Of a DNA stretch of 64,000 nt, positions 5,457-48,155 are shown in pieces. Below the pieces are notes generated by a model. It saw only the letters and a list, made by a program, of their open reading frames with translations. It did not search any database and was not told the origin of the DNA. Source of the DNA: Eubacteriales bacterium. Its GTDB lineage: Bacteria > Bacillota > Clostridia > Oscillospirales > CAG-272. Made by a program: the position numbers and the translations under genes. How positions within the stretch are numbered: position 1 is the first letter of the stretch; each line of letters begins with the position of its first letter. The DNA is taken from NCBI GenBank assembly GCA_045586845.1, contig JAZNBB010000058.1, forward strand, positions 6,532-70,531, read 5' to 3'.

Positions 5457-6311
5457 TCAGCCTTCCTGCTCAATGCGAGACAGCGTCACAACAACCAGCT
5501 CGGGTCTGTTGTTGAAGCGCAGAGGGAATGAGCTCGCGCCAATACCGCGGCTGACCACCATATTTGCATTCTCGTGGGTGTAAACGCCACTGTCGTACTC
5601 GGGAAGTACGCCTTGTCCCGGTGCATAAAGACCGCCGATCAGCGGCAGACGGAATTGTCCTCCGTGCGCGTGACCCGAAAGAGTCAGATCGATCTGTGCC
5701 TCGGCATAACGCCAAAAATATTCCGGGCGGTGCGAGAGAAGCACGGTAAATCCGTCCGTACCCGCGAGTTCACGCAGTTGCTCCGGCGAATGTAAAACGC
5801 CTTCGTAGTTCTCATCATCCACGCCAAGCAGCGTCATGTGTGCATCGCCACGTGCGATTGTGACTGCCTCGGCGTGCAGAATGTCAACGCCGATCTCGCG
5901 CATCTGTGCTTCGAACTCATAATAATCCGATCGGGGAAGTGCACATTCATGATTGCCCGTCACCATATAGCAGGGTGCGATCTGTACGCAGGCTTGTAAC
6001 AGCTCAAGCACTACGGGCACGTTCGGGTTGCGCGCGTCGATCGTGTCTCCCGTGAACACGATGATATCGGGCTGCGCTTCTGACAGCATGGAAAGCAGCT
6101 TTTGGTTGTCCTTGTCGTATTCCGCACAGTGCAGATCGGCAACCTGTGCTATGCGAAATCCATCAAATTCCTGTGGAAGACGCGTGCTTGCGACGGTATA
6201 GTCGGTACGCTCGAGCGCTGTGTTTGCCCAGATCACCCAACCGCCAAAGGCGAGCGATGCAGCGATCAGGATACACAGCGCCGAGAGCGCAATTATCTTT
6301 TTGTCCGTCAT
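5457..6311 (-). CDS. membrane-anchored metallophosphoesterase (calcineurin-like, YkuE-like)
   Basis: An N-terminal TM helix is followed by the motifs DLH, GDTID, GNHE and GHAHGG. The start overlaps the glnA stop by 1 nt (TAATG). Confidence 0.75.
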   Translation of the reverse strand: MTDKKIIALSALCILIAASLAFGGWVIWANTALERTDYTVASTRLPQEFDGFRIAQVADLHCAEYDKDNQKLLSMLSEAQPDIIVFTGDTIDARNPNVPVVLELLQACVQIAPCYMVTGNHECALPRSDYYEFEAQMREIGVDILHAEAVTIARGDAHMTLLGVDDENYEGVLHSPEQLRELAGTDGFTVLLSHRPEYFWRYAEAQIDLTLSGHAHGGQFRLPLIGGLYAPGQGVLPEYDSGVYTHENANMVVSRGIGASSFPLRFNNRPELVVVTLSRIEQEG

Positions 6312-7735
6312 TACAGGTTGTAGTATTTTTCAAACTCAGCGGGATGAGGAATTGCTGCCATAGCTCTGCATTCCTCGCGCTTTGTCTTAATAAAATTGTT
6401 GATGAGCTCAATGGGGAACACGCCGCCTGCAGTCAGGTAGTCGTGGTCAGCCTCCAGCGCGTCAAGTGCCTCGGGCAGCGAGGTGGGCAAATGGCGCAGC
6501 TTTGCCTTTTCCTCGTCGGAAAGATGATAGAGGTTGACGTCGTAAGGACCCCAACCATTTTTGTGCGGGTCTATCTTGTTTTTGATGCCGTCCAATCCTG
6601 CCATCAGGATAGCGGCATAGCAGAAATATGGGTTGCAGGTCGCATCGGGATTGCGCAGCTCAAAGCGACGCTTGTCGGGCGACTTTGCATAAGCGGGGAT
6701 GCGAATGACTGCAGAGCGGTTGGAGGTAGCATAGCCCACCGTAACAGGTGCCTCAAAGCCGGGTACCAGACGCTTGAACGAGTTGGTGCTGGGATTGGTC
6801 AGCGCGCAAAGGGAAGCGATGTGCGAAAGAATGCCGCCCATGAAGTAGTGCGCGGTCTCACTCAGATGTGCGTAGCCGTTATCATCTGCGAAAATGGGCT
6901 GCCCGTCCTTAAACAGCAGCATATGCACATGCATACCGCTGCCTGCCTCACCTGCAATGGGCTTGGGCATAAAGGTGGCGGATTTGCCGTATTTGAGCGC
7001 GGTGTTATGAATGATATACTTGATCATCATGGTTGCATCCGCCATGTGCACCACCTCGCCAAGCTGCGGTTCGATCTCAAACTGACCGGATGCTGCCACT
7101 TCGGGGTGATGATAGTTGATCTCAATCCCCGCGTCCAGCATATGCATACACATTTCGCTTCTTGCTTCATACGAACGGTCAAAGGGCTTGGCAATATGGT
7201 AAGCTTTCTGCTTGGGAACGATCACGCCGTGTCCCTGGCTGTCGCTGTTCCAGTAGGATTGCTCTGCGTCCACGTGTGCTCCGATATAATTGGGGGAGAC
7301 CTCCCAGCCCACGTTGTCAAACAGATAGAACTCAAACTCGGGCAGGATCTTCATGGTGTCGGCAACACCGCACGCACGCATATAAGCAACAGCCGCCTTG
7401 ATGATATTTCTGGGGTACTGTGCAAGCGGCTTGTTTTCCGGGCTGGCAATGATCATAGCGTCGCCGGTCATGGTCAGCGTGGGAATATCGCAGAAGGGGT
7501 CGATCTGTGCGGTGTTCGGATCGGGAATAAACACCATGTCGCTCTTTTCCACTACAGCGTAGCCGTAGTTGGAGGCATCAAATCCAATGCCGCTTTTCAT
7601 GGTATCCTCTGTAAAGTTCCGGGCGGGAATGGTGACATGGCGGTATTGACCGTTGATATCCACCATTTTGAAATCCACCATTTTGATGCCGTGCTCACGG
7701 ATCATGCTCATGATATCCTGTACGCTTTTTGCCAT
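6311..7735 (-). CDS. glnA: glutamine synthetase, type I
   Basis: 474 aa with a typical GS N-terminal beta-grasp and catalytic-domain blocks (KPIAGEAGSGMHVHM, NPYF). RBS aaaggag. Confidence 0.9.
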   Translation of the reverse strand: MAKSVQDIMSMIREHGIKMVDFKMVDINGQYRHVTIPARNFTEDTMKSGIGFDASNYGYAVVEKSDMVFIPDPNTAQIDPFCDIPTLTMTGDAMIIASPENKPLAQYPRNIIKAAVAYMRACGVADTMKILPEFEFYLFDNVGWEVSPNYIGAHVDAEQSYWNSDSQGHGVIVPKQKAYHIAKPFDRSYEARSEMCMHMLDAGIEINYHHPEVAASGQFEIEPQLGEVVHMADATMMIKYIIHNTALKYGKSATFMPKPIAGEAGSGMHVHMLLFKDGQPIFADDNGYAHLSETAHYFMGGILSHIASLCALTNPSTNSFKRLVPGFEAPVTVGYATSNRSAVIRIPAYAKSPDKRRFELRNPDATCNPYFCYAAILMAGLDGIKNKIDPHKNGWGPYDVNLYHLSDEEKAKLRHLPTSLPEALDALEADHDYLTAGGVFPIELINNFIKTKREECRAMAAIPHPAEFEKYYNL

Positions 7736-7837
7736 TTTTCCATACTCCTTTACTTTGGCTTATTAAATTATATACTCCTATTATATCATATTTTCGTCAG
7801 CCGTCAATAAAAACCGTGAAATTTTTAGCCTTTTCTC

Positions 7838-7866
7838 TTGACAAAAACAAAATTGTCGACTATAAT
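7838..7866 (+). promoter_or_regulatory. sigma-A type promoter (TTGACA-17-TATAAT) for the TetR/fak operon
   Basis: Perfect -35 TTGACA at 7838-7843, a 17-nt spacer, and perfect -10 TATAAT at 7861-7866. Confidence 0.6.
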
Positions 7867-7868
7867 TG

Positions 7869-7892
7869 GATAAGCAACTATGGTTGTTTATC
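7869..7892 (+). promoter_or_regulatory. palindromic candidate operator (TetR-type)
   Basis: GATAAGCAAC-tatg-GTTGTTTATC has 9 of 10 positions symmetric. It lies immediately downstream of the -10 box and upstream of the TetR gene. Confidence 0.4.
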
Positions 7893-7922
7893 TTTGGGTA
7901 TAAAACAGAGAAAGGAGCAAAT

Positions 7923-8456
7923 ATGGATCTGCGCATCATAAAAACCAAAAATCAGATCAAGCAGGCATTTTTGTCGCTGCGCAATAAGTATTCACTGGAA
8001 AAGATTAAGGTCAAGGACATCTGTGAGCTTGCCATGATCAATAAAACCACGTTTTATAAGCATTATGTGGATTCATTTGCACTTGCCAATGAGCTGGAAG
8101 AGAGCTGCATGGAAAAGCTGATGAACGCATTTTCCGAAAAAAAGAGCTTATTCGAGTCCCCCAAGGCTTACGTACAGGGCTTGTTGGGTGCGACCGAAAA
8201 ATATGCAGAGGAGCTGCGCCAGGTCTACCGCGACAGAAAGGACACCTTTGTCTCCAAGCTTGAGCAACGGCTGATGCAGGCTTGCGAGAGCGATGAGAGC
8301 AGCGAACAGCGTATTGCAGCTACGTTTATGATCAGCGGCACGGCGCAGGTGCTTGGCCAATGGTTGTTCGGTGAGGAGGGCAAACGCCCCGATCTTGGTG
8401 CCATTGCGACATACATTGAACGCATGTCGGGAAGCCTGATTCCCGCAACCAAATAA
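7923..8456 (+). CDS. TetR/AcrR-family regulator (dihydroxyacetone-kinase-regulator-like subfamily)
   Basis: The N-terminal HTH reads IKVKDICELAMINKTTFYKHY. I place the start at MDLRIIKTKN, which follows RBS aaaggag. The 7866 start in the ORF track overlaps the -10 box at 7861-7866. Confidence 0.7.
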   Translation: MDLRIIKTKNQIKQAFLSLRNKYSLEKIKVKDICELAMINKTTFYKHYVDSFALANELEESCMEKLMNAFSEKKSLFESPKAYVQGLLGATEKYAEELRQVYRDRKDTFVSKLEQRLMQACESDESSEQRIAATFMISGTAQVLGQWLFGEEGKRPDLGAIATYIERMSGSLIPATK

Positions 8457-8469
8457 AGGACGGAGATTT

Positions 8470-10116
8470 ATGGAAACGATAAGAATTGACGGCAGCGTCA
8501 TTCGCACGCTGCTGATGGGGAGTGTGTGCGGTATCCGTATGCATATAGAGGAGATCAATGATCTCAACGTTTTTCCCGTGCCGGACGGCGATACCGGTAC
8601 AAACATGACCAAAACGCTGGAGGGTGGTCTTTCAAGACTTGACGAGCAGGGAACGCTTGGAGAGCAAATGGGCGCATTTGCTAAGGGCTGTGTGCTGGGT
8701 GCACGCGGCAACTCGGGTGTCATTCTTTCACAGTATATGGCGGGGGTGGCGGCTGCCGTTGCATATAAGGAAAGCATCAGCGCAGGCGAGCTGGCGCACG
8801 CATTGACCGCGGGGGTTGATCGCGCGTATGCAGCTGTAGCGAACCCTGTGGAGGGTACGATACTGACCGTTTTCCGAGAAAGTTCGGAATACGCGGCACG
8901 GCACGCGGATGAGAACACCACCGCTGAACAGCTTTTGGAAATGGTGATAGAAAGTGCCAAGACGGCACTTGCCAAGACCAAGGAAATGCTGCCCGTGCTT
9001 GCACAGGCAGATGTTGTCGATAGTGGTGGCGCAGGGTATCTTGCTATGCTTGTGGGTATGTATGATGCGCTGACGGGTAAGGTTACCGATCTTGCCGGCT
9101 ACGATCGCACCGAGAGCGTAAAGACCTCGATCAATTACGATTTGTTTACCACAGACAGCGTGCCGGAGTGGGGGTACTGTACCGAGGCATTGGTCAGATT
9201 GCAGCGTGCCAAGGGAGACCCCGAGACATTTGATGTGGATGCATTCAGGGCAGCACTCGAAGCAAAAGATTGCAACTCTATCGTTGCGCTGCGTGACGGT
9301 GACTTGCTCAAGGTGCACGCGCATACCATGACCCCCTCCGATATACTGGTACTGTGTCAGGTATATGGTGAGTTTTTGGAGGTCAAGATCGAGAATATGA
9401 GTCTGCAGCATTCCGAGAGAACGGTTGCAGCGAAAAAGAAAAAGGTGCACAAGCCCTATGGGGTGATCGCTGTTGCAAGCGGTGATGGTATGCACGCGCT
9501 CTTTACCGAGCTTGGTGCAGATATTATCATTGATGGCGGACAGACTGCCAACCCAAGCGCTGAGGATTTTGTGGACGCGATCAATCAACTGGACGTCGAT
9601 CACGTGCTGCTTTTGCCCAATAACGGCAACATTCTGTTGACTGCGCAGCAGGCTGCAGGGCTTTGCGAGGATATGGATGTGCACGTTGTGCCCACCAAGT
9701 CATTCCCTCAGGGTTATGCAGCACTGGCTGTTTTCAATGCAGCTATTGAGGACGCAGACGAGCAGGTAGCAGATATGACCGAGGCAAAAAGTGCGGTTGT
9801 GTCGGGTGAGATCACCTATGCGATCCGTGACACCGTAATCGGTGACGTAGAGGTCAAAAAGGGCGAATCGATCGGTATCCTTGATGGCAAGTTGGTGTGC
9901 TCATGTGTCGATGAGAAAGCTGCTATGTGTGAGATGCTCTCGCAGATTAAGGACATTGAGGACAGAGAGATACTGACCCTGTTTGTGGGTGCGGATGTGA
10001 CAGAGGAGCAGAGAGTGGCAATGACCGAGGCGATTGAAGAGGCATACGAGGACTTGACCGTAGACGTGTTCACAGGCGGTCAACAGGTATACCGCTATCT
10101 TGTCGCAGTTGAATAA
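8470..10116 (+). CDS. DAK2 domain-containing protein, YloV/FakA-like fatty acid kinase subunit
   Basis: Has the DAK2 signature PDGDTGTNM. Its 548-aa length is the same as the YloV/FakA family. It is followed by plsX and a DegV gene. Confidence 0.8.
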   Translation: METIRIDGSVIRTLLMGSVCGIRMHIEEINDLNVFPVPDGDTGTNMTKTLEGGLSRLDEQGTLGEQMGAFAKGCVLGARGNSGVILSQYMAGVAAAVAYKESISAGELAHALTAGVDRAYAAVANPVEGTILTVFRESSEYAARHADENTTAEQLLEMVIESAKTALAKTKEMLPVLAQADVVDSGGAGYLAMLVGMYDALTGKVTDLAGYDRTESVKTSINYDLFTTDSVPEWGYCTEALVRLQRAKGDPETFDVDAFRAALEAKDCNSIVALRDGDLLKVHAHTMTPSDILVLCQVYGEFLEVKIENMSLQHSERTVAAKKKKVHKPYGVIAVASGDGMHALFTELGADIIIDGGQTANPSAEDFVDAINQLDVDHVLLLPNNGNILLTAQQAAGLCEDMDVHVVPTKSFPQGYAALAVFNAAIEDADEQVADMTEAKSAVVSGEITYAIRDTVIGDVEVKKGESIGILDGKLVCSCVDEKAAMCEMLSQIKDIEDREILTLFVGADVTEEQRVAMTEAIEEAYEDLTVDVFTGGQQVYRYLVAVE

Positions 10117-10136
10117 TTGAACATAAGGAGTGTATT

Positions 10137-11120
10137 ATGGCAACATATAAGATCGCAATAGACACACTGGGCAGCGATAAGGGTCCCGAAACCATCGTGC
10201 AGGGGGCCTTGATGGCACTTGCCGAGAATCCCGAGCTTTCGGTGGCGCTGTTCGGTGATGAGCAGGTCATTCGCGCATACCTTGAAAAGGTCGAGCATGA
10301 TCCCGAGCGTATCGAGATCGTGCACGCCCCCGATGCCATCACCAATTATGATAATCCCATGGAAGCCATTTTCAAAAAGACCGACGCATCTCTGGTCAAG
10401 GCACTGCAAGCACTTGCCGCACGCGACGATCTGCTGGGGTTGATCAACGCGGGCAGTACGGGTGCGCTGATTGCGGGTGCTTTGCGTTACGTACCCGCCA
10501 AGCCCTTGCGCAGACCTGCGCTGGCAGCCATTCTGCCCGCAGCAAAGGGCGGCTTTACCTGCCTTGTGGACACGGGCGCAAACATCGACTGCACAGCATC
10601 TATGCTGGTGGACTTTGCGCACATGGGCTCGGATCTGATGCAGCAATGCTACGGCATTGAAAGCCCCAGAATCGGTCTGCTCTCCAACGGTGCAGAGGCG
10701 ACCAAGGGCAACAAGCTGGTCAAGGAGACCCACGCGCTGCTCAAGGCAGACCAAAAGCTCAACTTTGTGGGCAACATTGAGGGTACAAACGCACTCTCGG
10801 GAGACTGCGACGTACTGGTGGCTGACGGCTTTGCGGGCAACCAGGTGCTTAAGAACTCCGAGGGCATTGCAAAGAGAATTATCACGGACATTGTGGTGTA
10901 CGGTAAAAAGACGGGTAACCCCGAGATCATGAAGCTGGTCGGATACCTGATGAGCATTTACGATTTCAACTCGCTGGGCGGTGCACAGCTGCTTGGCGTT
11001 GGTAAGCCGATCATCAAGGCGCATGGAGCCGCAAACGCAGATTCGATCAAAAATACCTCTGCCATCATGCTCAATGTAGCCAGAAACAAGGCGATGTTTG
11101 ACGGTAAAGACATAAGATAA
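10137..11120 (+). CDS. plsX: phosphate acyltransferase PlsX
   Basis: The N-terminus IAIDTLGSDKGP and the C-terminal block HGAANA... are typical of PlsX. RBS taaggag. Confidence 0.9.
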   Translation: MATYKIAIDTLGSDKGPETIVQGALMALAENPELSVALFGDEQVIRAYLEKVEHDPERIEIVHAPDAITNYDNPMEAIFKKTDASLVKALQALAARDDLLGLINAGSTGALIAGALRYVPAKPLRRPALAAILPAAKGGFTCLVDTGANIDCTASMLVDFAHMGSDLMQQCYGIESPRIGLLSNGAEATKGNKLVKETHALLKADQKLNFVGNIEGTNALSGDCDVLVADGFAGNQVLKNSEGIAKRIITDIVVYGKKTGNPEIMKLVGYLMSIYDFNSLGGAQLLGVGKPIIKAHGAANADSIKNTSAIMLNVARNKAMFDGKDIR

Positions 11121-11131
11121 GGAGACAGGTT

Positions 11132-12034
11132 ATGGAAATCAAAAGAAAAGTGATGTGCACATCCACGGGCTGTATCGAGTACGCCCCCGAACGCTACAAG
11201 AAGTACGACATCGACATCATCCGCATTCACGTACATTTCAAGGACAAGGAGTACTTAGAGGGGCTTGATCTTGATCCCGATGCATTCTACAAAGAGCTGG
11301 AAACGCTGGAGGATCCCAAGAACAATCTTCCCAGAACCGCAATGCCTACCGAGGACGAGATCAAGGCTTGCTTTGACAAGGCATACGAGGAAGGCTGCAA
11401 GGAGGTCATCGTGATCGCGCTGAGTGCATATCTCGGCGGTACCTGGAACCTCATCCGTCTGGTCGGCGAACAGTACAAGGATAAGATGGATATCTACGTT
11501 ATCGACTCCAAGATCGCTTGCTTTGGCGAGGGTATGCTTGCCATCAAGGCGGCAGAAATGGTGCAGAAGGGCGTGCCCACCGAGACTATTCTCAAGGAGA
11601 TCAACTGGATGATCAAGCATCAGGAATTTTTGGGCGTGGATGCAAAGCTTGACTATTTGATCTATAATGGCAGACTCAAGGGCGGCAAGGCGCTGATGGG
11701 CAAGATGCTCAACATTTGTCCCGTTGTACATTTCACGCATGACGGTGAGCTTTGTGCGCTGCAGAGCGTCCGCACTCCCAAGAAAGCATTGGCAAGAACC
11801 TGTGAGATCTTGAAGGAAATGATCGGTGACCGTTCACCTGAGGATTATTTGCTTTGGCACACCTATACCGGTCCCTCGCTGCTTGAAGAACTTGTCGAAA
11901 TCGAAAAGAAATATGATATTCACACCAATCATGAAAAGGTGATCACTTCTCCCGTCAGCGGTTGTCACAACGGTCCCTGGCTGGCAGGCTACGGACTTTT
12001 GTTCCTGCGCCGCGATGATGAGCCTCTTGAATAA
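11132..12034 (+). CDS. DegV family fatty-acid-binding protein (FakB-like)
   Basis: Length, overall pattern and the N-terminal C..TG....P....k.y.i block match DegV proteins, and the gene sits in a FakA/PlsX context. Confidence 0.8.
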   Translation: MEIKRKVMCTSTGCIEYAPERYKKYDIDIIRIHVHFKDKEYLEGLDLDPDAFYKELETLEDPKNNLPRTAMPTEDEIKACFDKAYEEGCKEVIVIALSAYLGGTWNLIRLVGEQYKDKMDIYVIDSKIACFGEGMLAIKAAEMVQKGVPTETILKEINWMIKHQEFLGVDAKLDYLIYNGRLKGGKALMGKMLNICPVVHFTHDGELCALQSVRTPKKALARTCEILKEMIGDRSPEDYLLWHTYTGPSLLEELVEIEKKYDIHTNHEKVITSPVSGCHNGPWLAGYGLLFLRRDDEPLE

Positions 12035-12036
12035 TC

Positions 12037-13173
12037 ATGCTTATGGAAAACGTAACGATCAACCGGGTCAAGACATCCTCGCAGAAAAAAGCGTTCGTTC
12101 AATTTCCTCTCAGACTCTATAAGAACAATCCGTTTTTTGTGCCGCCCTTGTATGGGGATGAAATGGCGCAATTCAAAAAGAATCATGCCTACAGTGATAC
12201 CTGCGACACCGCGTTTTTCCTTGCCATGAAAGGAAAAACGGTAGTGGGTCGCATCCAAGGTATTTTGCAGCGGCAGTCCAACGAGCTGCGAGGCGAGAAG
12301 CGCGTACGCTTTACCCGCTTTGACGCCATTGACGATCTCGCAGTTGCCAAAGCGCTGTTTGATGCCGTGGAAAACTGGGCGAAAGAGCAAGGCATGGATA
12401 CGGTCTGCGGACCTCTTGGTTATAGTGACTTGGAACGAGAAGGGCTGCTGATTGAAGGCTTTGATCAGCTTTCTACTTTTGAGGAACAGTACAATTATGA
12501 CTACTATCCCAAGCTGCTCGAGGCTTGCGGCTACGGTAAGGAGATCGACTGGTATGAGTTCCGCCTGCGCGCACCCCAGACCCCCAATCCTATGCTCGGC
12601 AGAGTGGCAGAGCGCGCGCTGGAGCTTTCAAAGCTGCACGTGGTGGACAGCTCCAAAATGTCCAAGAAAAAGTACATCCAGACCTATAAGGACGGCTTTT
12701 TCGATTGCCTGGACGAGTGCTACGCCCACCTGTACGGTGCCGTGCCGTTCACCGAGAATATGAAAAAGCAGATGATCGACCAGTTCATGCTGATTCTCAA
12801 TAAAGAATACCTCATGATCCTGTGCGACAAAGACGAGCGCGTGGTCGCGTTTGCCTTGTGCATTCCCGGTATCGGCGAGGCGCTGCAAAAGAGCGGGGGA
12901 CGGCTGACCCCGGGCGCGCTCGTCCGTGTGATGCGCGCTGCAAAAAAGCCGCGCACGCTGGATCTTGGGCTGATTGCGGTGCGCCCGCAATACCAGGCAG
13001 CAGGCGTCAACGCCGTTATGCTGCACCGCATGATCGAATATCTGCAGGCAGGCAAGGTCGAATACGCCGAAACCAATCTCAATCTCGAAACCAATACGCA
13101 GGTCATGGCGCAATGGAAATATTTTGACGCTACCCAACATAAACGCCGCAGATCCTATATTAAAACAATTTAG
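12037..13173 (+). CDS. uncharacterised double-GNAT-like acyltransferase family protein
   Basis: Matches a widespread roughly 370-aa family annotated as GNAT N-acetyltransferase. Recognisable blocks are F..FP..LYK..P.FVPPL, VGRI, GP.GYSD.EREGLL.EGF and YNYDYYP. The start lies 3 nt after the degV stop. Confidence 0.55.
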   Translation: MLMENVTINRVKTSSQKKAFVQFPLRLYKNNPFFVPPLYGDEMAQFKKNHAYSDTCDTAFFLAMKGKTVVGRIQGILQRQSNELRGEKRVRFTRFDAIDDLAVAKALFDAVENWAKEQGMDTVCGPLGYSDLEREGLLIEGFDQLSTFEEQYNYDYYPKLLEACGYGKEIDWYEFRLRAPQTPNPMLGRVAERALELSKLHVVDSSKMSKKKYIQTYKDGFFDCLDECYAHLYGAVPFTENMKKQMIDQFMLILNKEYLMILCDKDERVVAFALCIPGIGEALQKSGGRLTPGALVRVMRAAKKPRTLDLGLIAVRPQYQAAGVNAVMLHRMIEYLQAGKVEYAETNLNLETNTQVMAQWKYFDATQHKRRRSYIKTI

Positions 13174-13175
13174 CC

Positions 13176-13204
13176 GTAGGGACCGGCGTCCTCGACGGTC
13201 CTAC
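13176..13204. repeat. GTAG-headed palindromic unit (type A, loop GCGTCCTCGA)
   Basis: GTAGGGACCG-GCGTCCTCGA-CGGTCCTAC, located between the GNAT-like gene and the carrier protein gene. Confidence 0.7.
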
Positions 13205-13228
13205 TCTACAACAAGAAAGGATACAACT

Positions 13229-13450
13229 ATGCTTGAAAAACTCACCGAAATCATTGGTCGCGTGAACCCCGGAATTGACGTTTCCACCGTCACCCCCGAG
13301 ACCAAGCTCATGGAAGACCTTAAGTTGGACTCTCTGTCCATTATGCTGCTGGCTATGGAGATCGAGGCAGCGTTTGGCTTCCAGTTCAACGAGCCCGTAC
13401 AGTTCGTCACCGTACAGGACGTGTGCGATTACCTTGCCGCTAAAGCGTAA
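13229..13450 (+). CDS. acyl carrier protein (divergent, non-AcpP-like)
   Basis: 73 aa with the phosphopantetheine attachment motif LDSLS in MEDLKLDSLSIMLLAMEIE. The start MLEKLTEII was chosen in place of the 13124 ORF-track start, whose extension overlaps the upstream gene and the repeat. Confidence 0.7.
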   Translation: MLEKLTEIIGRVNPGIDVSTVTPETKLMEDLKLDSLSIMLLAMEIEAAFGFQFNEPVQFVTVQDVCDYLAAKA

Positions 13451-13461
13451 TATCCCCAAAA

Positions 13462-13495
13462 AGAACGGTCTGCATGGTGCAGGTCGTTCTTTTTG
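13462..13495 (+). terminator. rho-independent terminator after the carrier protein gene
   Basis: AGAACGGTCTGCA-tgg-TGCAGGTCGTTCT followed by TTTTT. Confidence 0.7.
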
Positions 13496-13636
13496 CTTTT
13501 AAAAAATGAATATCACAACTTGTAGGGAGCTACATCGCGCCGCGTTTTTGAAATATTCCCGAAAAATCTTGAGTGCTCTTGATTTTACGGAAAATATTTG
13601 ATATAATAGCATACAACGACAAGAAAGGGGAGCGCA

Positions 13637-14221
13637 ATGCTATCATTCGACATTTCCCAAGAGGTCTTTACCTGTGCGGTCTACCCGGGTGATCCTGCGC
13701 CTGCGCGACAGGTGCTTGCAAGCCTTGACGCGGGTGACGTGTGCAATCTGACTGCGTTTTCCATGTGTGCGCACAACGGCACGCATATAGACGCACCCGC
13801 GCATTTTATCGCGGGCGGCAAGACCGTGGACGCTCTGCCGCTTGACGCGCTGATCGGCAATGCCATCATAATCTCGCATGTGGGCGATATCACGGCGTCC
13901 GACGCACACCGCATGCTGGAAATGGCGGGAAATATCAAAAAGCTGCTGATCAAGGGCAACGCCACGCTGACGCTTGAGGCTGCCGAGGTGCTTGCAGAGG
14001 CGGACATCGAGCTTTTTGGCAACGAATCGCAAACGGTTGGCCCCGAATCCGCACCCATGGCGGTGCATAAACGCTTGCTTGGCGCGAATGTCGTGCTGCT
14101 GGAGGGCATACGCCTTTCACACGTACCCGACGGAGAATATCTGCTTTGTGCAGCCCCGCTAAACCTCGGCGGTGCGGACGGTGCACCCTGCCGCGCAGTT
14201 TTGATCGATTTATCTGAGTAA
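13637..14221 (+). CDS. cyclase family protein (kynurenine formamidase-like fold)
   Basis: Has the HNGTHIDAPAHF motif characteristic of the putative cyclase family. RBS aaagggga. Confidence 0.7.
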   Translation: MLSFDISQEVFTCAVYPGDPAPARQVLASLDAGDVCNLTAFSMCAHNGTHIDAPAHFIAGGKTVDALPLDALIGNAIIISHVGDITASDAHRMLEMAGNIKKLLIKGNATLTLEAAEVLAEADIELFGNESQTVGPESAPMAVHKRLLGANVVLLEGIRLSHVPDGEYLLCAAPLNLGGADGAPCRAVLIDLSE

Positions 14222-14233
14222 AGGAGAGAAAAC

Positions 14234-14785
14234 ATGACTGAATTTCTTGCAATGCTTGAATCCGTTTCGCCGATCTTAGTCTGCTTTCTGATCTGTGCCG
14301 CAAAGATCCTGGAGATCACCATTCAATCGCTCAAAACCTGCATGATGGTCAAGGGGCAGCGGCTCAAAGCCGCAGGCTTGGGCTTTGTGGAGTGCATCAT
14401 CTGGGGTCTGGTGGTGTCGGGTGTCATCGGCACGCTGGGCGATAACCCCTTGCGCCTGGTCTTTTACTGCGCGGGCTACGCCGCGGGTCTGTCCCTCGGC
14501 TCTACCATTGAGGGCAAGATCGCGCTCGGCACGTCCAACTTAGAGCTGATCGCAAGCGACGAGAGCACCGAGAAGATCACGGCTTACTTAAAAGAGAACG
14601 ATCTTGGCTATACCGTCCTGCCCGGACACGGCGCAACCGAGAAGATGAATATGATCTTTATCGTGCTGCCCAGAAAGCGTACCAAGCGCGTGCTTGGCGA
14701 GATCCGTAAGTGTTGCGATAATAAGGTCTTTGTAGTCGCATCCGAGGTCAGCAAGTATGCCGGCGGCTACGGTATGGTGAAGTAA
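14234..14785 (+). CDS. UPF0316/DUF2179 family membrane protein
   Basis: Three N-terminal TM helices are followed by a C-terminal soluble domain. The overall pattern resembles the YebE/UPF0316 family. Confidence 0.6.
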   Translation: MTEFLAMLESVSPILVCFLICAAKILEITIQSLKTCMMVKGQRLKAAGLGFVECIIWGLVVSGVIGTLGDNPLRLVFYCAGYAAGLSLGSTIEGKIALGTSNLELIASDESTEKITAYLKENDLGYTVLPGHGATEKMNMIFIVLPRKRTKRVLGEIRKCCDNKVFVVASEVSKYAGGYGMVK

Positions 14786-14805
14786 AAGCGCAGCTTTTTA
14801 CAACT

Positions 14806-15004
14806 GCGGCTGTGCCGCAATATCATATTTGTAGGGACAGGCGTCCTCGACTGTCCGTTTCTGCAATACCACTATGACCACAGGTCACAATATCACTTTG
14901 TTATCCGTAGGGGCGACCATCGGTCGTCCGCTATCGCGGCGGCAGCAAGCCACCGCCCTACGACGTGGCTCGATGCGTACGGGCGATCATTGATCGCCCG
15001 CCCC
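14806..15004. repeat. array of short palindromic units (GTAG-headed and hairpin+AATATCA[CT] types)
   Basis: The units, in order:
- GCGGC-tgt-GCCGC followed by AATATCAT, 14806-14826.
- GTAGGGACAG-GCGTCCTCGA-CTGTCC, 14831-14856.
- AATACCAC, 14865-14872.
- TGACC-aca-GGTCA followed by CAATATCAC, 14875-14896.
- GTAGGGGCGACC-atc-GGTCGTCC, 14907-14933.
- A reverse-orientation unit ending CACCGCCCTAC, 14937-14960.
- GTACGGGCGATCA-t-TGATCGCCC, 14978-15004. Confidence 0.75.
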
Positions 15005-15035
15005 TTCGGATAAAATCTACCGAAAGGAGAGCACT

Positions 15036-15626
15036 ATGGCTAATAAGAAAAACAAGAAAAAGCAGCGACTTTTTTCGCTCACGTGGAAATTCTGGCTGGG
15101 GTTTATTATTGTGCAACTGTGCTATTTGACAGTGTGTTCTAACGCGGTATATTCGGAGTGGCCGTGTAATGACAGAAATACGCAAACTGTTATTGGAGAA
15201 GTAGAGAATATCAGGGATGTAAGCACAGGCTTCAGAATTTATCGCGGTCACGGTTCGAAAGGTTACCTGGAGATTACCGTGAACGGGCAACCGTACCGCT
15301 TGTACGTTCAAAGCAATCAAAAGGAAATGAGCACTTCCGATGTTAAAGATAATCTTGCTATCGGTGATAGCGTAGAGATCGCGTACAAGGCACAAATTCG
15401 TATGTTCAAAGAATGCAGCGTTGTGGTCGGCATGAAAGATGACACGCAGACCTACCGTACGATAGAGGCTTATAACGCCAATGCCCGCGTGCTTTTGCCC
15501 GTATTCTCGGTATTGATGCTGGTCGCCGAGGCACTGTTGTGCCTGCCGCTTTACGCAGAATATTTGCTCAGGTTGATCGTGCTCGTCAGAACCCGAAAAA
15601 CGGAATGCGAAAAGAAAAAGAAATAG
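15036..15626 (+). CDS. hypothetical membrane protein
   Basis: Has a lysine-rich N-terminus, one N-terminal and one C-terminal hydrophobic segment, RBS gaaaggag and a terminator downstream. I recognise no motif. Confidence 0.45.
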   Translation: MANKKNKKKQRLFSLTWKFWLGFIIVQLCYLTVCSNAVYSEWPCNDRNTQTVIGEVENIRDVSTGFRIYRGHGSKGYLEITVNGQPYRLYVQSNQKEMSTSDVKDNLAIGDSVEIAYKAQIRMFKECSVVVGMKDDTQTYRTIEAYNANARVLLPVFSVLMLVAEALLCLPLYAEYLLRLIVLVRTRKTECEKKKK

Positions 15627-15959: not shown

Positions 15960-17054
15960 ATGGCAAGCAAACACGAGGGACTGAGTGAACGCAAGAAGTT
16001 AATATTGAAGGCGATCGTCGAGGCACATATTGCCGAGGGTGAACCGGTCGGTTCCAAGTCGCTTATGGCAAATCAGCAGATCGTGTGCTCGTCTGCTACC
16101 ATTCGTAACGAAATGGCAGAGCTTGAGGAGATGGGATACCTGGTACAGCCTCACACCTCGGCGGGCAGAGTGCCAAGTGAGCTGGGGTACCGCTTTTACG
16201 TGGACTCGCTGATCGAACACTATGCCATGACCGCACACGACATCAAGGAGATCGGCGGTCTCTTAAAATCCAAGATGCACGAGCTGGACGAGGTACTGCT
16301 GGCGGCTTCGCGTGTTGCGTCAAGCTTGACAAACTATACGGGCATTGCCATCAAGCCCCGCGCATCTGCCGCACGTATCAATCGCTTTGAGGTCATCTAT
16401 ATCAGACCCACCGAGTTTATCGTAGTCATGGTCGCTGCTTCAAGCGACGTCAAGACCAAGAGCATTCATACCGAGAACGAAATTACCGCAGACGTGACCG
16501 CACACCTGTCAAGCGTGCTCAATTCCAATATTGCGGGTCTGACGTCGCATCAGATCAATTTGCCTATCATCATGAACATGGAGACCGAGATGGGACAGCA
16601 CGCAAGTCTTGTATCTCACGTGATCAAGGCAGTTTACGAAACGCTTAATGAGCTGGACGACGGAGAGGTACGATGGAGCGGTATCGATCAACTTTTGCAG
16701 TACCCCGAATTTGAGGACCGAGACACCCTCAAGCATGTGCTTGGAGCACTGGAAGGGCAGGACGAGATCTTAGATCTTGTATCTGCAGGTGACCGCGAGG
16801 ACATCAACGTGGTGTTCGGCGCAGGCGGCATGACCGGACCCATGAACAATTCCGCCATGGTATATAAACATATCGTCAAGGATGGCAAGACCGTAGGTGC
16901 GATCGGTATTATCGGTCCGCGCCGCATGGATTACGCCAAGGTGCTGGCAACCTTGGAAAGCCTGACCGGCAATATTGCGGATATGCTGGGCGAGGATACC
17001 AAACTTTTGAACGGAGGACAATCCAATGGAACAGACCCAAAGACCGACGGATGA
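15960..17054 (+). CDS. hrcA: heat-inducible transcription repressor HrcA
   Basis: The N-terminal winged helix LSERKKLILKAIVEAHIAEGEPVGSK, the position as first gene of the dnaK operon, and the upstream CIRCE site all support the call. Confidence 0.9.
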   Translation: MASKHEGLSERKKLILKAIVEAHIAEGEPVGSKSLMANQQIVCSSATIRNEMAELEEMGYLVQPHTSAGRVPSELGYRFYVDSLIEHYAMTAHDIKEIGGLLKSKMHELDEVLLAASRVASSLTNYTGIAIKPRASAARINRFEVIYIRPTEFIVVMVAASSDVKTKSIHTENEITADVTAHLSSVLNSNIAGLTSHQINLPIIMNMETEMGQHASLVSHVIKAVYETLNELDDGEVRWSGIDQLLQYPEFEDRDTLKHVLGALEGQDEILDLVSAGDREDINVVFGAGGMTGPMNNSAMVYKHIVKDGKTVGAIGIIGPRRMDYAKVLATLESLTGNIADMLGEDTKLLNGGQSNGTDPKTDG

Positions 17055-17613
17055 GACTGTAGAGGCGCAAGAACCCGTCACAGAACAGCCCGAGGTACAG
17101 AGCGAACCCGAGGAAAAACCGGGACGCGCGGATAAAAAGAAGCTTAAAAAGGCAGAGGCACAGATAGCCGAGCTTGAAAAGCAGCTCGAAGAGAGCAAGG
17201 CAGAGCTGGCAGCCGCCAACGATAAGTATATGCGCATGATCGCAGAGTACGACAACTATCGCCGCCGTACCGCAAAGGAAAAGGACGGCATTTACGCAGA
17301 CGCGTATGCAGATGCGCTGAAGGGCATTCTCCCTATTCTTGACAATCTGGAGCGTGCAGTTGGCGTGAGCGAGGCAGAAGCACTGCAAAAGGGACTTGCC
17401 ATGACGCTCAAAGGGGCAGAGGACGCACTGGTCAAGATGGGCGTAACCGCTTTCGGTGAGAAGGGAGAGACCTTCGATCCCGAAAAGCATAACGCAGTCA
17501 TGCATATCGAAGACGAGCAATACGGTGAGGGCGAGATCACCGAGGTTTACCAAAAGGGCTATGCAAAGGGCGACAAGATTTTGCGCTTTGCCATGGTCAT
17601 CGTCGCAAACTGA
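17026..17613 (+). CDS. grpE: nucleotide exchange factor GrpE
   Basis: An acidic N-terminus is followed by the coiled-coil block DKYMRMIAEYDNYRRRTAKE. The position between hrcA and dnaK fits. It overlaps the hrcA 3' end by 29 nt. Confidence 0.9.
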   Translation: MEQTQRPTDETVEAQEPVTEQPEVQSEPEEKPGRADKKKLKKAEAQIAELEKQLEESKAELAAANDKYMRMIAEYDNYRRRTAKEKDGIYADAYADALKGILPILDNLERAVGVSEAEALQKGLAMTLKGAEDALVKMGVTAFGEKGETFDPEKHNAVMHIEDEQYGEGEITEVYQKGYAKGDKILRFAMVIVAN

Positions 17614-17658
17614 AATCAGAAATCTATCAAACACCATATATAAGGAGGAAAAATAATT

Positions 17659-19485
17659 ATGGGAAAGATCATCGGTATAGATTTAGGTACAACAAACTCT
17701 TGTGTAGCAGTATTCGAGGGCTCCGAGCCCATCGTTATCCCCAATCCCGAGGGAAGCAGAACCACCCCTTCTGTAGTCGCATTCTCCAAAACGGGTGAGA
17801 GAATGGTCGGTCAGGTCGCAAAGCGCCAGGCGATCACCAATCCCGACAGAACCGTTATCTCGATCAAGAGAGAAATGGGCTCTGCCAAGAAGACCAATAT
17901 TGACGGCAAGGCATACACCCCCCAGGAGATCTCCGCAATGATTTTGCAGAAGCTCAAGGCTGATGCGGAAAGCTATCTTGGTACCACCGTGACCGAAGCG
18001 GTCATCACGGTTCCCGCGTACTTCTCGGACGCACAGCGTCAGGCAACAAAGGATGCAGGTAAGATCGCGGGTTTGGACGTTAAGAGAATCATCAACGAGC
18101 CCACCGCCGCAGCACTGGCATACGGCATGGACAAGGAGATCGGGCAGAAGATCATGGTATTCGACCTTGGCGGCGGTACCTTTGACGTTTCTATTCTTGA
18201 GATCTCGGACGGTGTGTTCGAGGTGCTTGCAACCAATGGCGACACCAAGCTGGGAGGCGACGACTTCGACCAGAGAATCATCGACTGGATGGCTGATAAG
18301 TTCCAGCGTGAGAACGGCGTAGACCTGCGCAAGGACAAGATGGTGCTGCAGAGACTCAAGGACGCAGCAGAGAAGGCAAAGATCGAGCTTTCCGGCATGA
18401 TGTCCGCTGACATCAACCTGCCCTTCATTACCGCAACCAGCGCAGGACCTCTCCACTTTGAGGCAACCCTGACCAGAGCCGAGTTCGACCGCATCACGGC
18501 TGATCTTGTCGACCGCGCAATGGTTCCCACCAAAAAGGCACTCTCCGACGCGGGCTTGAGCGTTTCTCAGATCGACAAGTGCCTCTTAGTCGGCGGTTCT
18601 ACCAGAATTCCCGCCGTACAGGAAGCTGTTAAGAAGTTTATCGGCAAAGAACCTTTCAAGGGTATCAACCCCGATGAGTGCGTAGCAATCGGTGCTGCTA
18701 TTCAAGGCGGCGTACTGGGTGGCGAGGTCAAGGATCTGCTGCTGCTTGATGTAACCCCCCTGTCTTTGGGTATTGAGACCATGGGCGGTGTATTCAATCG
18801 CATCATTGACAGAAACACCACCATCCCCGTAAAGAAGAGCCAGATCTATTCTACCGCAGCCGACGGTCAGACCTCCGTTGAGATCCACGTGCTGCAGGGT
18901 GAGCGTGAAATGGCACAGTATAACACCACGCTGGGCAGATTCATTCTGGACGGCATCGCGCCCGCTCCCCGCGGTGTGCCCCAGATCGAGGTCACCTTTG
19001 ACATCGTCGCAAACGGTATCGTAAACGTTACCGCAAAGGATAAGGGCACCGGCAAGGAGCAGCACATCGTCATCACTTCTTCGACCAATATGTCGCAGGA
19101 GGATATCGACAAGGCAGTTCGTGAGGCTGAAAAGTTTGCCGAGGAGGATAAGAAGCAGAAGGAAGCCGTTGACGTACGCAACCACGCAGAGTCCATGGTA
19201 TTCCAGATGGAAAAGACACTTGGCGAGGTAGAGGGCAAGGTCAGCGCAGAAGCTATCAACGAGGCGCGCGCAGGCATTGACAAGCTCAAGGAGACCTTGA
19301 AGGGCAGTGATACCGAGGCGATCAAGGCAGATACAGAGGCTTGTGAAAAGGCATTCTACAAGGTATCCGAGGAGCTGTACCGTCAGCAGAGCGCACAGGG
19401 CGGCGATCAGCAGCAGGGAGGCAACTACAACCAAGGCGACGGCACCTATTACGACGCAAACTACGAGGATAACTCCAACAAGTAA
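17659..19485 (+). CDS. dnaK: molecular chaperone DnaK (Hsp70)
   Basis: [21 protein letters not shown] and the rest of the sequence are unambiguous Hsp70. Confidence 0.97.
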
Positions 19486-19552
19486 TCAAAAATGGCTAAA
19501 GGCTGTCGCACCATGTGCGACAGCCTATAGCAGGTTATAAAGGAATTTGAAC

Positions 19553-20686
19553 ATGGCAGACAAAAGAGATTATTACGAGGTACTGGGTGTTGATAAGAAC
19601 GCATCGGATGCCGAGATCAAAAAGGCATACCGCGTGCTGGCGAAAAAGTACCACCCCGATATGAATCCCGGCAATGCCGAGGCTGAGGCAAAGTTCAAGG
19701 AAGCAAACGAAGCATACGAGGTGCTCTCGGACAGCGAGAAAAAGGCAAAGTACGACCAGTTTGGTCACGCAGCGTTTGACCAGGGCGCAGGCTTTGGCGG
19801 AGGCGGCTACAGTGGCGGATTTACCGATTTCGGCGATATCGGCGATATTTTCGGGTCGTTCTTTGGCGGCGCATTCGGCGGTGGCGGACAGAAGCGACGC
19901 AACGGTCCTCAGCGCGGAGACGATATTCAGATCCGCGTGTCGCTGTCATTTGAGGAGGCGGCGTTCGGTGTCAAGAAGACTATTACCTATACAAGACTTC
20001 GCAAATGTCCCGATTGCGGAGGCAACGGCAGTGAAGGCGGGCAAGCCCCCGAGACCTGCTCGGCTTGCCGTGGCACGGGTCAGGTGCGCACGGTACACAA
20101 TATGGGCGGCATGCAGTTCCAGTCCACAGGCACTTGCGAGAAGTGTCGCGGTACGGGTAAGATTATTAAAAATCCCTGTTCGCGTTGCCGCGGTGCGGGC
20201 ATGGAGCGTGAGAACAAGAATTTGACCGTGGATATTCCCGCAGGTATCGACCACGGCGAAAAGATCGCGTTGCGTTCCCAGGGCTGTGACGGCAAAAACG
20301 GGGGTCCTACAGGTGACTTGATTATGCAGGTCAACGTACAACCGCATAAGATATTCAAGCGCGACGGTGCCAATATCTATTGCGATGTTCCTGTTACGGT
20401 TTCTGAGGCGGTGCTGGGAGCTGAGATCGACGTGCCTACCTTGGAAGGTTCGCACAAGTTCGATCTGCCCGAGGGTACGCAAACCGGTACTTCCTTTACG
20501 CTGCGCGGCAAGGGCATTCCCAATTTGGGCAACGGTTCACGCAGGGGAGATCTGATCTTCAGAGTGAGCGTTGAGATTCCCACAGGGCTTTCCTCCAAGC
20601 AAAAGGAGGCAATGCGCGTATTTGCGGAGGCATGCGGCGAGAGCAATTATAAAAAGAAGAAAAACTTTTTCAAGAAGAGCAAATAA
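19553..20686 (+). CDS. dnaJ: molecular chaperone DnaJ
   Basis: Has a J domain (DYYEVLGV...HPD), a G/F-rich linker and four CxxCxGxG zinc motifs. I prefer ATG 19553 over the TTG at 19547. Confidence 0.95.
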
Positions 20687-20699
20687 AGGGTAAATAAGT

Positions 20700-21659
20700 A
20701 TGGTAGATAAGGATTACGTTTGCGAGGATTGGGGTGAGACTACCCAATGGACGCAGATTCGCGTCACGGTCAAGCTTGAGCAGTTAGACGCGCTTGTCGC
20801 GGTTATGAGTATGATCAATAACAATCTCATGATCGAGGATTACAGCGACATCGATCTCAAGACCTGCTACGGCGACCTGATAGACGAGAGCATTCTCAAC
20901 GCGGATAAGACCATCGCGTCTGTGTCGGTTTACTTACCCGTGGAGCGTGATATCCGTGAGGACGTGGAGTTTTTGCGCGAAATGCTTGCAAAGGACGGCA
21001 TTGAGGGCGAAATCAAGATGATCGGTCTTAATGAAGAGGACTGGGCAAACGCATGGAAGGCGTATTATAAGCCGATCAAGATCGGCTCCAAGATCGTCAT
21101 CGTGCCCGCTTGGGAAAAGTATGAGGCTGCAGAGGGTGAATTGATTGTGCGTATGGATCCCGGTATGGCGTTCGGAACGGGCACGCACGAGACCACCAGA
21201 TTGGTTATCGGTCTTTTGGAAAAGTATACCACCCCCGGCGTGCGTATGTTGGACGTGGGTACGGGCAGCGGTATTCTTGCCATCTGTGCCTCCCGTTTGG
21301 GTGCAGGGGAGTGTAAGGCGTACGATATCGATCCCATGTCGGTGCGCGTGGCACGCGAGAACATCAAGGATTCTGGTCTCGACAATATCACCTGTGACCA
21401 ATCCGACCTGTTGCGCTCGGTGGATATTGCGGGCGGCAAATACGGACTTGTGTGTGCCAATATCGTAGCGGACATCATCATTCGCATGACGCCCGACGTG
21501 CATAAGTACATTGCAAAGGACGGCGTGCTGTTGGCTTCGGGTATCATTATGGAACGCAGTCAAGATGTGGTTAATTGCTTTGAAGCACACGGCTTTGAGA
21601 TCGTTGAGCGCGCCGAGGAAAACGGTTGGTGCGCACTCGCGGTCAAATTAAGAAAATGA
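20700..21659 (+). CDS. prmA: ribosomal protein L11 methyltransferase PrmA
   Basis: Shows the SAM-binding block LDVGTGSGILAI and the FGTGTHETT motif, and occupies the conserved position after dnaJ. Confidence 0.85.
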   Translation: MVDKDYVCEDWGETTQWTQIRVTVKLEQLDALVAVMSMINNNLMIEDYSDIDLKTCYGDLIDESILNADKTIASVSVYLPVERDIREDVEFLREMLAKDGIEGEIKMIGLNEEDWANAWKAYYKPIKIGSKIVIVPAWEKYEAAEGELIVRMDPGMAFGTGTHETTRLVIGLLEKYTTPGVRMLDVGTGSGILAICASRLGAGECKAYDIDPMSVRVARENIKDSGLDNITCDQSDLLRSVDIAGGKYGLVCANIVADIIIRMTPDVHKYIAKDGVLLASGIIMERSQDVVNCFEAHGFEIVERAEENGWCALAVKLRK

Positions 21660-32649: not shown

Positions 32650-32670
32650 TTATCTTCCTTTTCAGTGTTT

Positions 32671-33678: not shown

Positions 33679-33697
33679 TTTCGTCTTTCTCCTTTAC

Positions 33698-34243
33698 TCA
33701 AATCTGCGCCTTGAGCGTATGTATCTGGTCGCGGAGCAGCGCCGCGGTCTCAAAATCCTCGGCAAGCACCGCCTGCTTCATTTGTTCACGGAGCAGTGCG
33801 GCACGAGCCTCTCTTTCACGACGCAGCCTGAAATTACGCGGCATGCGTCCGGGGTAGGGCGTGCCCTCGGGCAGTGCGTGCAATGAGCCCGATATTTCGT
33901 CTCGAAAGGTCTTGTAGCAAGCAGCGCATCCCACGCTGCCGCTCTCAGCAATACCCGCCAAGGTCGAGGAGCAAACGGGGCAGGTGCGCACGGCGGCAAT
34001 GTTGTGCGGTACGGTAATACCGCAAAGATTGCCAAACATGGCGCTTTCACTGCACCCGAACGCAGAGGACGCCGAGGGAATGCGCACATCCTCCAGTTCA
34101 CCTGTACGGCGCATAGCCTCTGCACAGTCGGCACAAAGTGAGCAGGAGCGCGTTTTTCCGCCTAAGTTTTCGTTGTAGAAGACCGTAGCCTTTTTCTTTT
34201 TACATTTTTCACATAGCATAAAAGAGAGTCCTTTCTTTTTCAT
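33698..34243 (-). CDS. mcsA: McsA-like activator of McsB (zinc fingers plus UVR motif)
   Basis: Has repeated CxxC pairs (CEKC, CSLCADC, CPVC, CAAC) and a C-terminal UVR-like AEDFETAALLRDQI. The start is uncertain: either ATG 34243 or the MLCEKC ATG 24 nt downstream. Confidence 0.7.
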   Translation of the reverse strand: MKKKGLSFMLCEKCKKKKATVFYNENLGGKTRSCSLCADCAEAMRRTGELEDVRIPSASSAFGCSESAMFGNLCGITVPHNIAAVRTCPVCSSTLAGIAESGSVGCAACYKTFRDEISGSLHALPEGTPYPGRMPRNFRLRREREARAALLREQMKQAVLAEDFETAALLRDQIHTLKAQI

Positions 34244-37324: not shown

Positions 37325-37327
37325 TGT

Positions 37328-37413
37328 GGTGCCGGTGGTGGGACTTGAACCCACACGATGTTGCCATCGCCAGATTTTGAGTCTGGTACGTCTGCCGATT
37401 CCGTCACACCGGC
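37328..37413 (-). tRNA. tRNA-Leu (anticodon CAA), CCA encoded
   Basis: The reverse complement reads GCCGGTGTGACGGAATCGGCAGACGTACCAGACTCAAAATCTGGCGATGGCAACATCGTGTGGGTTCAAGTCCCACCACCGGCACCA. It has a 7-bp acceptor stem, the anticodon loop CTCAAAA, a long variable arm and a GTTCAAGTC T-loop. Confidence 0.9.
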
Positions 37414-48084: not shown

Positions 48085-48155
48085 CCGAGAGCGAAATCCG
48101 GTTCTCAAACGATTTTGCGTATTGATTTTATGATTGACAGGAAAGGAGAGTGCGT

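Follow-up and report, generated by a model that had tools for sequence, protein, structure and literature searches.

Parts for activating environmental fatty acids and a conserved tandem-GNAT protein are encoded together in a putatively TetR-controlled operon of Clostridia

The use of exogenous fatty acids decides whether bacteria can bypass inhibitors of the type II system for making fatty acids (FASII) and shapes the way in which gut microbes handle dietary and host lipids, and what is understood of it so far comes almost wholly from staphylococci, streptococci and enterococci. In Staphylococcus aureus, streptococci and Enterococcus faecalis, FakB binds the free fatty acid, FakA phosphorylates it to the acyl-phosphate and PlsX reversibly acylates the holo form of acyl carrier protein (ACP). 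A stretch of 64,000 nucleotides from an Eubacteriales bacterium (GTDB CAG-272, Oscillospirales; GCA_045586845.1, contig JAZNBB010000058.1, positions 6,532-70,531 of the forward strand), here called the window, carries genes for FakA-, FakB- and PlsX-like proteins and an ACP together with a gene for a protein of two GNAT halves, and raises the question of what becomes of scavenged acyl chains when such a protein is at hand. The locus very probably constitutes one self-repressed operon for the use of environmental fatty acids. For the whole reading, in which the tandem-GNAT protein in addition passes the acyl chain from acyl-ACP to an amine, we consider the case evenly balanced.

As judged from sequence, a single operon holds every known part for activating environmental fatty acids and for loading a carrier protein with them. 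What is new is that known pathway parts are gathered in a single operon under putative TetR control, joined by an uncharacterised, conserved tandem-GNAT protein, which is its most constrained member. The operon comprises the following elements:

7838-7866 (+): sigma-70-type promoter, with TTGACA (-35) at 7838-7843, a 17-nt spacer and TATAAT (-10) at 7861-7866
7870-7891 (+): probable operator, ATAAGCAAC-N4-GTTGTTTAT, which forms an imperfect inverted repeat a short way downstream of the -10 element
7923-8456 (+): TetR-family regulator (DhaS-like branch), 177 aa
8470-10116 (+): FakA-like fatty acid kinase catalytic subunit, 548 aa
10137-11120 (+): PlsX, acyl-ACP:phosphate acyltransferase, 327 aa
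11132-12034 (+): DegV-family (FakB-like) fatty-acid-binding protein, 300 aa
12037-13173 (+): tandem-GNAT protein, 378 aa
13229-13450 (+): divergent ACP, 73 aa
13457-13495 (+): intrinsic terminator with a stem of 18 bp and a loop of 3 nt, after which comes the U-run CUUUU

An initial annotation, made from the letters of the window, had described six tightly spaced genes on the same strand with gaps of 2-55 nt, had taken them for a single unit and had invoked the established chemistry by which FakA and FakB yield acyl-phosphate and PlsX acyl-ACP. This is upheld at the level of sequence: the six genes share one strand, the gaps in operon order are 13, 20, 11, 2 and 55 nt, promoter, operator, tight spacing and terminator are all found, and all parts of the route are encoded in the operon. 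The annotation had further suggested a dedicated route from fatty acid to an acyl acceptor; the unit may instead be the usual module by which the cell makes phospholipid precursors. Profile searches also agree with its six domain assignments, the double-GNAT fold having been reached by structure prediction and fold search.

The product of 8470-10116 is, by homology, a full-length FakA, for which kinase activity on FakB-bound fatty acid is predicted. Its three-domain architecture is complete, with Pfam Dak2 (PF02734), FakA-like_M (PF21645) and FakA-like_C (PF13684) all above their cut-offs. The protein reaches 543 bits against TIGR03599 YloV (cut-off 396), matches the structure 7w7h (554 aa, deposited as 'predicted kinase related to dihydroxyacetone kinase') over its full length with E 1e-109 and also matches FakA domain structures including 6w6b and 7rm7. 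Its score against the Staphylococcus-type equivalog NF038248 is 437 bits, under the cut-off of 975. PlsX passes the plsX equivalog TIGR00182 (261.4 bits, cut-off 243.4) and matches Pfam FA_synthesis with E 7e-76. The DegV (EDD) fold domain extends over the full length of the DegV-family protein (Pfam DegV, E 4e-55; TIGR00762 DegV, 206 bits, cut-off 99.7), which matches DegV of Bacillus subtilis (3fys, E 4e-29) and FakB1 structures (E about 1e-20) and, with 114.8 bits, lies under the cut-off of 350 for the FakB1 equivalog NF038249.

The perfect TTGACA-17-TATAAT promoter reported in the initial annotation is the sole 12/12 match within 6500-15500, and by calculation chance alone would give about 0.02 perfect matches in the two strands of 64 kb. 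All regulator homologues examined, including those of only 42-47% identity, have kept TTGACA-N17-TATAAT on their 5' side. The operator had been described as palindromic, and no coordinates had been given for it. Here the picture is more differentiated: a simple repeat search at the promoter returns GTCGAC in the spacer (7852-7863) as the sole palindrome, and a conserved imperfect inverted repeat is present at 7870-7891. The sequence ATAAGCAAC-N4-GTTGTTTAT occurs once in the window versus 0.08 expected occurrences. A relaxed form gives exactly one match per locus in 10 related loci, each time 5' of the regulator gene, and the window-like ATAAGCAAC variant is present in the closer relatives. From its position and from phylogenetic footprinting we infer that the regulator binds this inverted repeat, and with it the regulator-operator logic of the unit. 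More distant operons (L001, L003 and L010-L016) possess, besides the downstream palindrome, a direct repeat CGACAAAAATCGAC in the spacer between -35 and -10, which may represent a second regulator contact.

The regulator most likely starts with the ATG at 7923, which is preceded by an AAAGGAG site. The TTG at 7866, taken from the list of open reading frames (ORFs), is probably not the start because this codon overlaps the -10 element. When 10 homologues are combined in a profile, the best-supported match is to the TetR-family structure 3kkc, over residues 2-169 and with E 5e-11, and the DhaS-type regulators 4mk6 and 2iu5 are matched as well, in keeping with the TetR plan of an N-terminal helix-turn-helix followed by a helical ligand domain. 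Against the NCBIfam DhaS equivalog the regulator scores 32.7 bits, under the 129-bit cut-off, and as a single sequence it has no reported match to Pfam TetR_N at E <= 0.01. At the other end of the unit, where a strong terminator at 13462 had been proposed, the hairpin at 13457-13495 folds with -21.9 kcal/mol (z = -5.9), a stability attained by 0 of 200 shuffled sequences.

Failure of the arrangement to recur in any relative had been named as a finding that would speak against the whole idea. In fact, it recurs widely. With one genome per GTDB species 555 relatives were found, and the counts given here refer to the best 80 of them (52-87% GNAT identity), whose six-frame translations were scanned with hidden Markov models built from the operon proteins. 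All of these 80 are metagenome-assembled genomes of uncultured gut or rumen bacteria, and most of them bear the label Clostridia, Eubacteriales, Oscillospiraceae or Christensenellaceae. In 59 of the 80 loci the GNAT gene is clustered with one or more partners from among Fak, PlsX and ACP. DegV is encoded directly upstream of it in 56, FakA is present in the cluster in 48 and PlsX in 46, and an ACP gene follows directly downstream in 41. The pair of GNAT and ACP, for which a survey had been suggested, is thus common, yet that of DegV and GNAT is both tighter and commoner.

The order FakA-PlsX-DegV-GNAT-ACP is complete in 32 loci, 12 of which include the regulator gene, and the order FakA-DegV-GNAT-PlsX-ACP is complete in four. 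Rarer orders include PlsX-GNAT-ACP, and several loci are shorter versions, partly truncated by the contig. More than five gene orders exist in total among the 80 loci, a variety that speaks for a functional link rather than for synteny kept by descent. Furthermore, the identical six-gene order is found at about 70% GNAT identity within unrelated flanks. The flanks of related clusters, identified by reading translations, include rpoC with rpsL-rpsG-fusA-tuf, ruvCAB-queA-tgt and nrdDG; no fab genes were recognised among those flanking ORFs whose translations were read. In one cluster of alternative order (L077, 4823-5557) the ACP gene is directly followed by a gene for a 244-aa multi-pass membrane protein that by eye resembles PAP2-type lipid phosphatases.

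In a second operon type, genes encoding PlsX and a canonical AcpP come after the GNAT gene. The DegV proteins fall into two clades of about 24% identity, each encoded directly upstream of GNAT, and DegV-GNAT adjacency is still present at 49% GNAT identity. Between the two main operon types identity amounts to 53-55% for GNAT, 34-40% for FakA, 36-40% for PlsX, 33-41% for ACP and about 24% for DegV. By this measure the tandem-GNAT protein is the best conserved protein between the two types. Within its close subfamily the mean column identity is 79%.

The carrier protein differs in a corresponding manner between the operon types. In the window it matches Pfam PP-binding (PF00550) with 35.6 bits (cut-off 20.8), the attachment motif D34-S35-L36 can be read in its sequence and its top PDB matches are ACPs; it falls below all NCBIfam AcpP cut-offs (e.g. 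TIGR00517, 41.3 vs 70.45 bits). ACPs encoded directly after GNAT (window, L023, L030 and L057) score 38-47 bits on the canonical AcpP model with its cut-off of 70.45, whereas those encoded after PlsX in clusters of the FakA-DegV-GNAT-PlsX-ACP type (L063, L074, L076 and L083) pass it with 75-85 bits. Helix II of the GNAT-following ACPs is also less acidic, reading DSLSIMLLAMEIEAAF in the window versus DSLDxLQLLMTIEEE in the other type. The low AcpP score and the less acidic helix II are consistent with an ACP that has been freed from the constraints of interaction with FASII enzymes. No fab or acc genes are among the ORFs annotated in the window. The genes for ACP and PlsX share the operon and are not adjacent to each other.

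What, then, is the role of the 378-aa protein? At the level of fold only, it is a predicted double GNAT. An AlphaFold2 (AF2) model computed from 44 homologues (pLDDT 79.6, pTM 0.76) was compared over its full length with known structures by Foldseek and matched the tandem GNATs 5kf1, 2wpw (CBG), 7q3a, MAB_4324, VipF, MshD and Eis with TMq 0.5-0.57 at about 10% identity, in alignments of about 390 columns with probability 1.00. Its sequence is far less telling. Pfam Acetyltransf_1 matches weakly in the C-terminal third (25.5 bits, cut-off 20.7), the only Pfam matches at E <= 0.01 are this family and Acetyltransf_10, and neither an NCBIfam family nor a significant PDB sequence match was obtained. 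In a profile of 16 diverse homologues the C-terminal half matches generic single-domain GNATs only, and it can be aligned with motif A of RimI-type GNATs, the beta4-alpha3 element that binds CoA/pantetheine. The N-terminal half has most of the residues that are invariant in the family, including an acidic and aromatic loop (GPLG...EGLLIEGF...YNYDYY) that is modelled with low confidence, and a conserved basic cluster, QHKRRRSY, is situated C-terminally. The DegV stop codon and the GNAT start are separated by 2 nt, no Shine-Dalgarno-like sequence is visible at this junction, and in relatives the two genes overlap. None of the papers in the literature that could be searched connects a GNAT with FakB/DegV.

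Enzymes with a GNAT-type fold that take an acyl chain from acyl-ACP and form an amide are known: FeeM (with the ACP FeeL), OlsB, GlsB and LuxI-type proteins act in this way, sometimes with a dedicated ACP encoded alongside. They provide the model for a possible action of the tandem-GNAT protein, although they are single-domain proteins of other families and the protein studied here consists of two GNAT halves. We tentatively propose that the tandem-GNAT protein is an acyl-ACP-dependent acyltransferase acting on an amine acceptor, an assignment which we hold to be somewhat less probable than its opposite and which is based on the linkage to ACP and PlsX, the retained pantetheine-type motif, the pairing of a basic GNAT (isoelectric point 8.8) with an acidic ACP (4.16), the extreme conservation and the acidic, acceptor-like pocket. 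Aminolipids have been reviewed (PMC11631085).

The proposed cycle would begin with the TetR protein, which would occupy the palindrome over the transcription start and be released by a fatty-acyl ligand. Environmental fatty acid bound to FakB would be converted to acyl-phosphate by FakA and then to acyl-ACP by PlsX, whose acceptor would mainly be the operon ACP, drifted as it is from canonical FASII AcpP. The tandem-GNAT protein, which would be translationally coupled to FakB, would take the acyl thioester from acyl-ACP by means of its C-terminal half with the pantetheine/pyrophosphate-binding motif A. The acyl chain would be moved to an amine-bearing acceptor held by the conserved acidic, aromatic N-terminal half. 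The scavenged fatty acid would in this way end up in an N-acyl compound, in addition to ordinary phospholipid synthesis through PlsY and PlsC.

Several observations weigh against such a role in acyl transfer from ACP. The protein has no match at E <= 0.01 to Pfam Acetyltransf_5 (PF13444), to which the FeeM, OlsB and GlsB families belong, its closest folds are those of acetyl-CoA-dependent tandem GNATs, and the position of the canonical catalytic Tyr aligns with Trp. In 21 of the 80 loci the GNAT gene stands alone with no partner nearby, and in seven the order is FakA-DegV-GNAT with no adjacent ACP. The wider family is large (4,748 clusters at 50% identity with E <= 1e-3, 482 with E <= 1e-30), and its members are named in the sources only as 'GNAT family N-acetyltransferase' or 'hypothetical protein'. 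A further protein search with a profile of the family yielded the close matches already obtained. Its distant members (36-44% identity; Chitinophagaceae/Bacteroidota and other contigs) occur alone and have no conserved neighbours, so that the link to Fak belongs to the Clostridial subfamily, where it reaches down to at least 49% identity, and not to the family as a whole. Natural fusions of family members, to MsrA, to a DGC domain or by tandem duplication, are uninformative on lipids. Finally, a gene for a PlsC/LPLAT-family acyltransferase of 381 aa is located at 22463-23608 (-), about 9 kb downstream of the operon (PF01553, 39.8 bits; TIGR00530, 42 bits, under the cut-off of 103). Its product possibly consumes acyl-ACP made by the operon, so that the operon may feed ordinary phospholipid synthesis only.

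The last point leads to an alternative in which FakA and FakB, PlsX and ACP, as the only ones of the cell, form a housekeeping module that supplies acyl-phosphate and acyl-ACP to PlsY/PlsC, and in which the GNAT is an acetyl-CoA-dependent N-acetyltransferase, acting either on lysines of Fak, PlsX or ACP and so tuning flux or on a small amine unrelated to the acyl chain. The PlsC-family gene in the window agrees with it, as do the acetyl-CoA dependence of the top structural matches (GlmA 5kf1, MshD, Eis and MAB_4324), a motif A like that of protein N-acetyltransferases such as RimI, distant relatives lacking lipid context and the housekeeping genes (rpsL-fusA-tuf, ruvCAB) that flank related operons. 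Regulation of fatty-acid-activating enzymes by acetylation has precedents in AcuA and Pat, which act on acyl-CoA synthetases. On the other hand, one would not expect a regulatory acetylase to surpass all other proteins of the cluster in conservation or to stay translationally coupled to FakB across DegV clades that are only 24% identical, and the invariant acidic and aromatic N-terminal loop seems to resemble the acceptor site for a small molecule rather than a protein-docking surface. We regard this alternative as possible but doubtful. The idea that the GNAT stands in for PlsC was rejected, as a PlsC-family gene is already present in the window; to our knowledge, GNATs do not act as lysophosphatidate O-acyltransferases.

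The close association with DegV could also be taken literally. The GNAT would then be a third, non-catalytic or unconventional partner of the Fak system that binds FakB and possibly ACP, or that uses the FakB-bound acyl-phosphate as donor. DegV-GNAT is the tightest and commonest pair (56 of 80 loci) and is kept at 49% identity, the two genes overlap or are 2 nt apart, some FakA-DegV-GNAT clusters have neither PlsX nor ACP nearby, and the Trp in place of the canonical catalytic Tyr would suit an unusual mode of action. We know of no GNAT that uses an acyl-phosphate donor, however; motif A, made for a pantetheine-pyrophosphate ligand, is kept, and homologues occur in genomes and contexts lacking DegV. 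Furthermore, the characterised Fak systems reportedly need no third subunit (PMC10146087, PMC10848957). A third Fak partner is therefore improbable in our view.

Among the lower-ranked fold matches of the model are Sbb17/Sba18, FemX and the catalytic domain of MprF, all of them aminoacyl-tRNA-dependent. Together with the conserved basic cluster QHKRRRSY they would be compatible with a Fem/MprF-like dupli-GNAT that transfers an amino acid from aminoacyl-tRNA to a lipid, or to a lipid precursor derived from scavenged fatty acid. These matches reach TMq 0.33-0.42 and are weaker than those to the acetyl-CoA-dependent tandem GNATs, the protein has a motif A of the CoA type, and no tRNA-related or lipid-headgroup genes are conserved nearby, which makes this the least probable explanation of all and a very unlikely one. 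A function as phosphopantetheinyl transferase was discarded because the fold is wrong.

We thus return to the acyl-ACP-dependent acyltransferase as the preferred, if tentative, assignment. A broader formulation would be that the tandem-GNAT protein founds a new class of enzymes coupled both physically and in function to fatty acid kinase, which would convert acyl chains from host or diet, presented as acyl-ACP or as FakB-bound acyl-phosphate, to N-acyl amines or N-acyl amino acids. This step is the more speculative one, and we think it rather unlikely to hold in full.

In S. aureus and streptococci, the genes fakA, fakB, plsX and acpP are scattered or are part of fab operons. The CAG-272 system employs the same three protein families as the FakA/FakB-PlsX pathway of these bacteria (review PMC10146087; structures PMC10848957 and PMC9136124) and presumably the same chemistry, but here the genes are united in one TetR-controlled operon with a tandem-GNAT gene, which those systems do not possess. 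A parallel for the carrier protein is acpB of E. faecalis, which is co-transcribed with plsX and encodes an auxiliary ACP for exogenous acyl chains (PMC6509188). In both cases the gene for a divergent ACP accompanies plsX, away from any fab operon, and has a tie, here presumed, to the handling of exogenous acyl chains. AcpB, however, coexists with a canonical AcpA and acts through regulation by FabT (PMC6509188), whereas the ACP studied here follows GNAT rather than PlsX and the regulator is of the TetR type.

The tandem-GNAT acetyltransferases, that is glucosamine N-acetyltransferase from Clostridium acetobutylicum (5kf1), MshD, 2wpw, MAB_4324 and Eis, share the two-GNAT architecture and the C-terminal cofactor motif with the protein from the operon. 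They are only about 10% identical to it at a TM of about 0.5-0.57, and all are users of acetyl-CoA, none of them linked to Fak or ACP genes. A fatty acid amide pathway from gut Clostridia relies on OaaC, a stand-alone condensation domain of the non-ribosomal peptide synthetase (NRPS) type, together with a carrier protein (PMC13310621). The two have in common their occurrence in gut Clostridia, the carrier protein encoded beside an acyl-transferring enzyme and a possible N-acyl amide product. The difference lies in activation by Fak and PlsX and in a GNAT as the putative transferase; in the six operon proteins, Pfam shows neither a condensation domain nor an AMP-ligase domain.

It thus appears that the whole fatty acid activation pathway is packaged as one regulated unit in a large group of uncultured Clostridia from gut and rumen, and to it the operon adds a strongly conserved enzyme outside every curated family. 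Should the GNAT indeed divert scavenged acyl chains, it would offer a gene handle for some of the microbiome N-acyl lipids whose makers are unknown, and on the broader reading these abundant Clostridia would possess a way, so far overlooked and independent of NRPS, to the N-acyl lipids that are now being catalogued in metabolomes of the microbiome (PMC11565975). If it regulates Fak instead, a new layer of control would be added to a pathway of antibiotic relevance.

The remainder of the window has a largely housekeeping character, with hrcA-dnaK-dnaJ-prmA at 15960-21659 (+), clpC-mcsB-mcsA at 30250-34243 (-) and uvrB-uvrA at 56711-62043 (+), and the surroundings of the operon suggest no involvement of a mobile element. 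A 554-aa ORF at 6146-7810 (+) runs antisense to glnA (6311-7735, -) and is almost certainly spurious, which illustrates that long ORFs are no proof of genes in this DNA. Genes for tRNA-Leu and tRNA-Met are found at 37327-37413 and 55993-56069, respectively. A 614-aa protein with LNT_N and CN_hydrolase domains, encoded at 48150-49994 (+), resembles apolipoprotein N-acyltransferase (Lnt), an enzyme not expected in most Firmicutes. Two large surface proteins with BspA-type leucine-rich repeats, typical of host-associated anaerobes, are encoded at 27672-30011 (+) and 53877-55838 (+).

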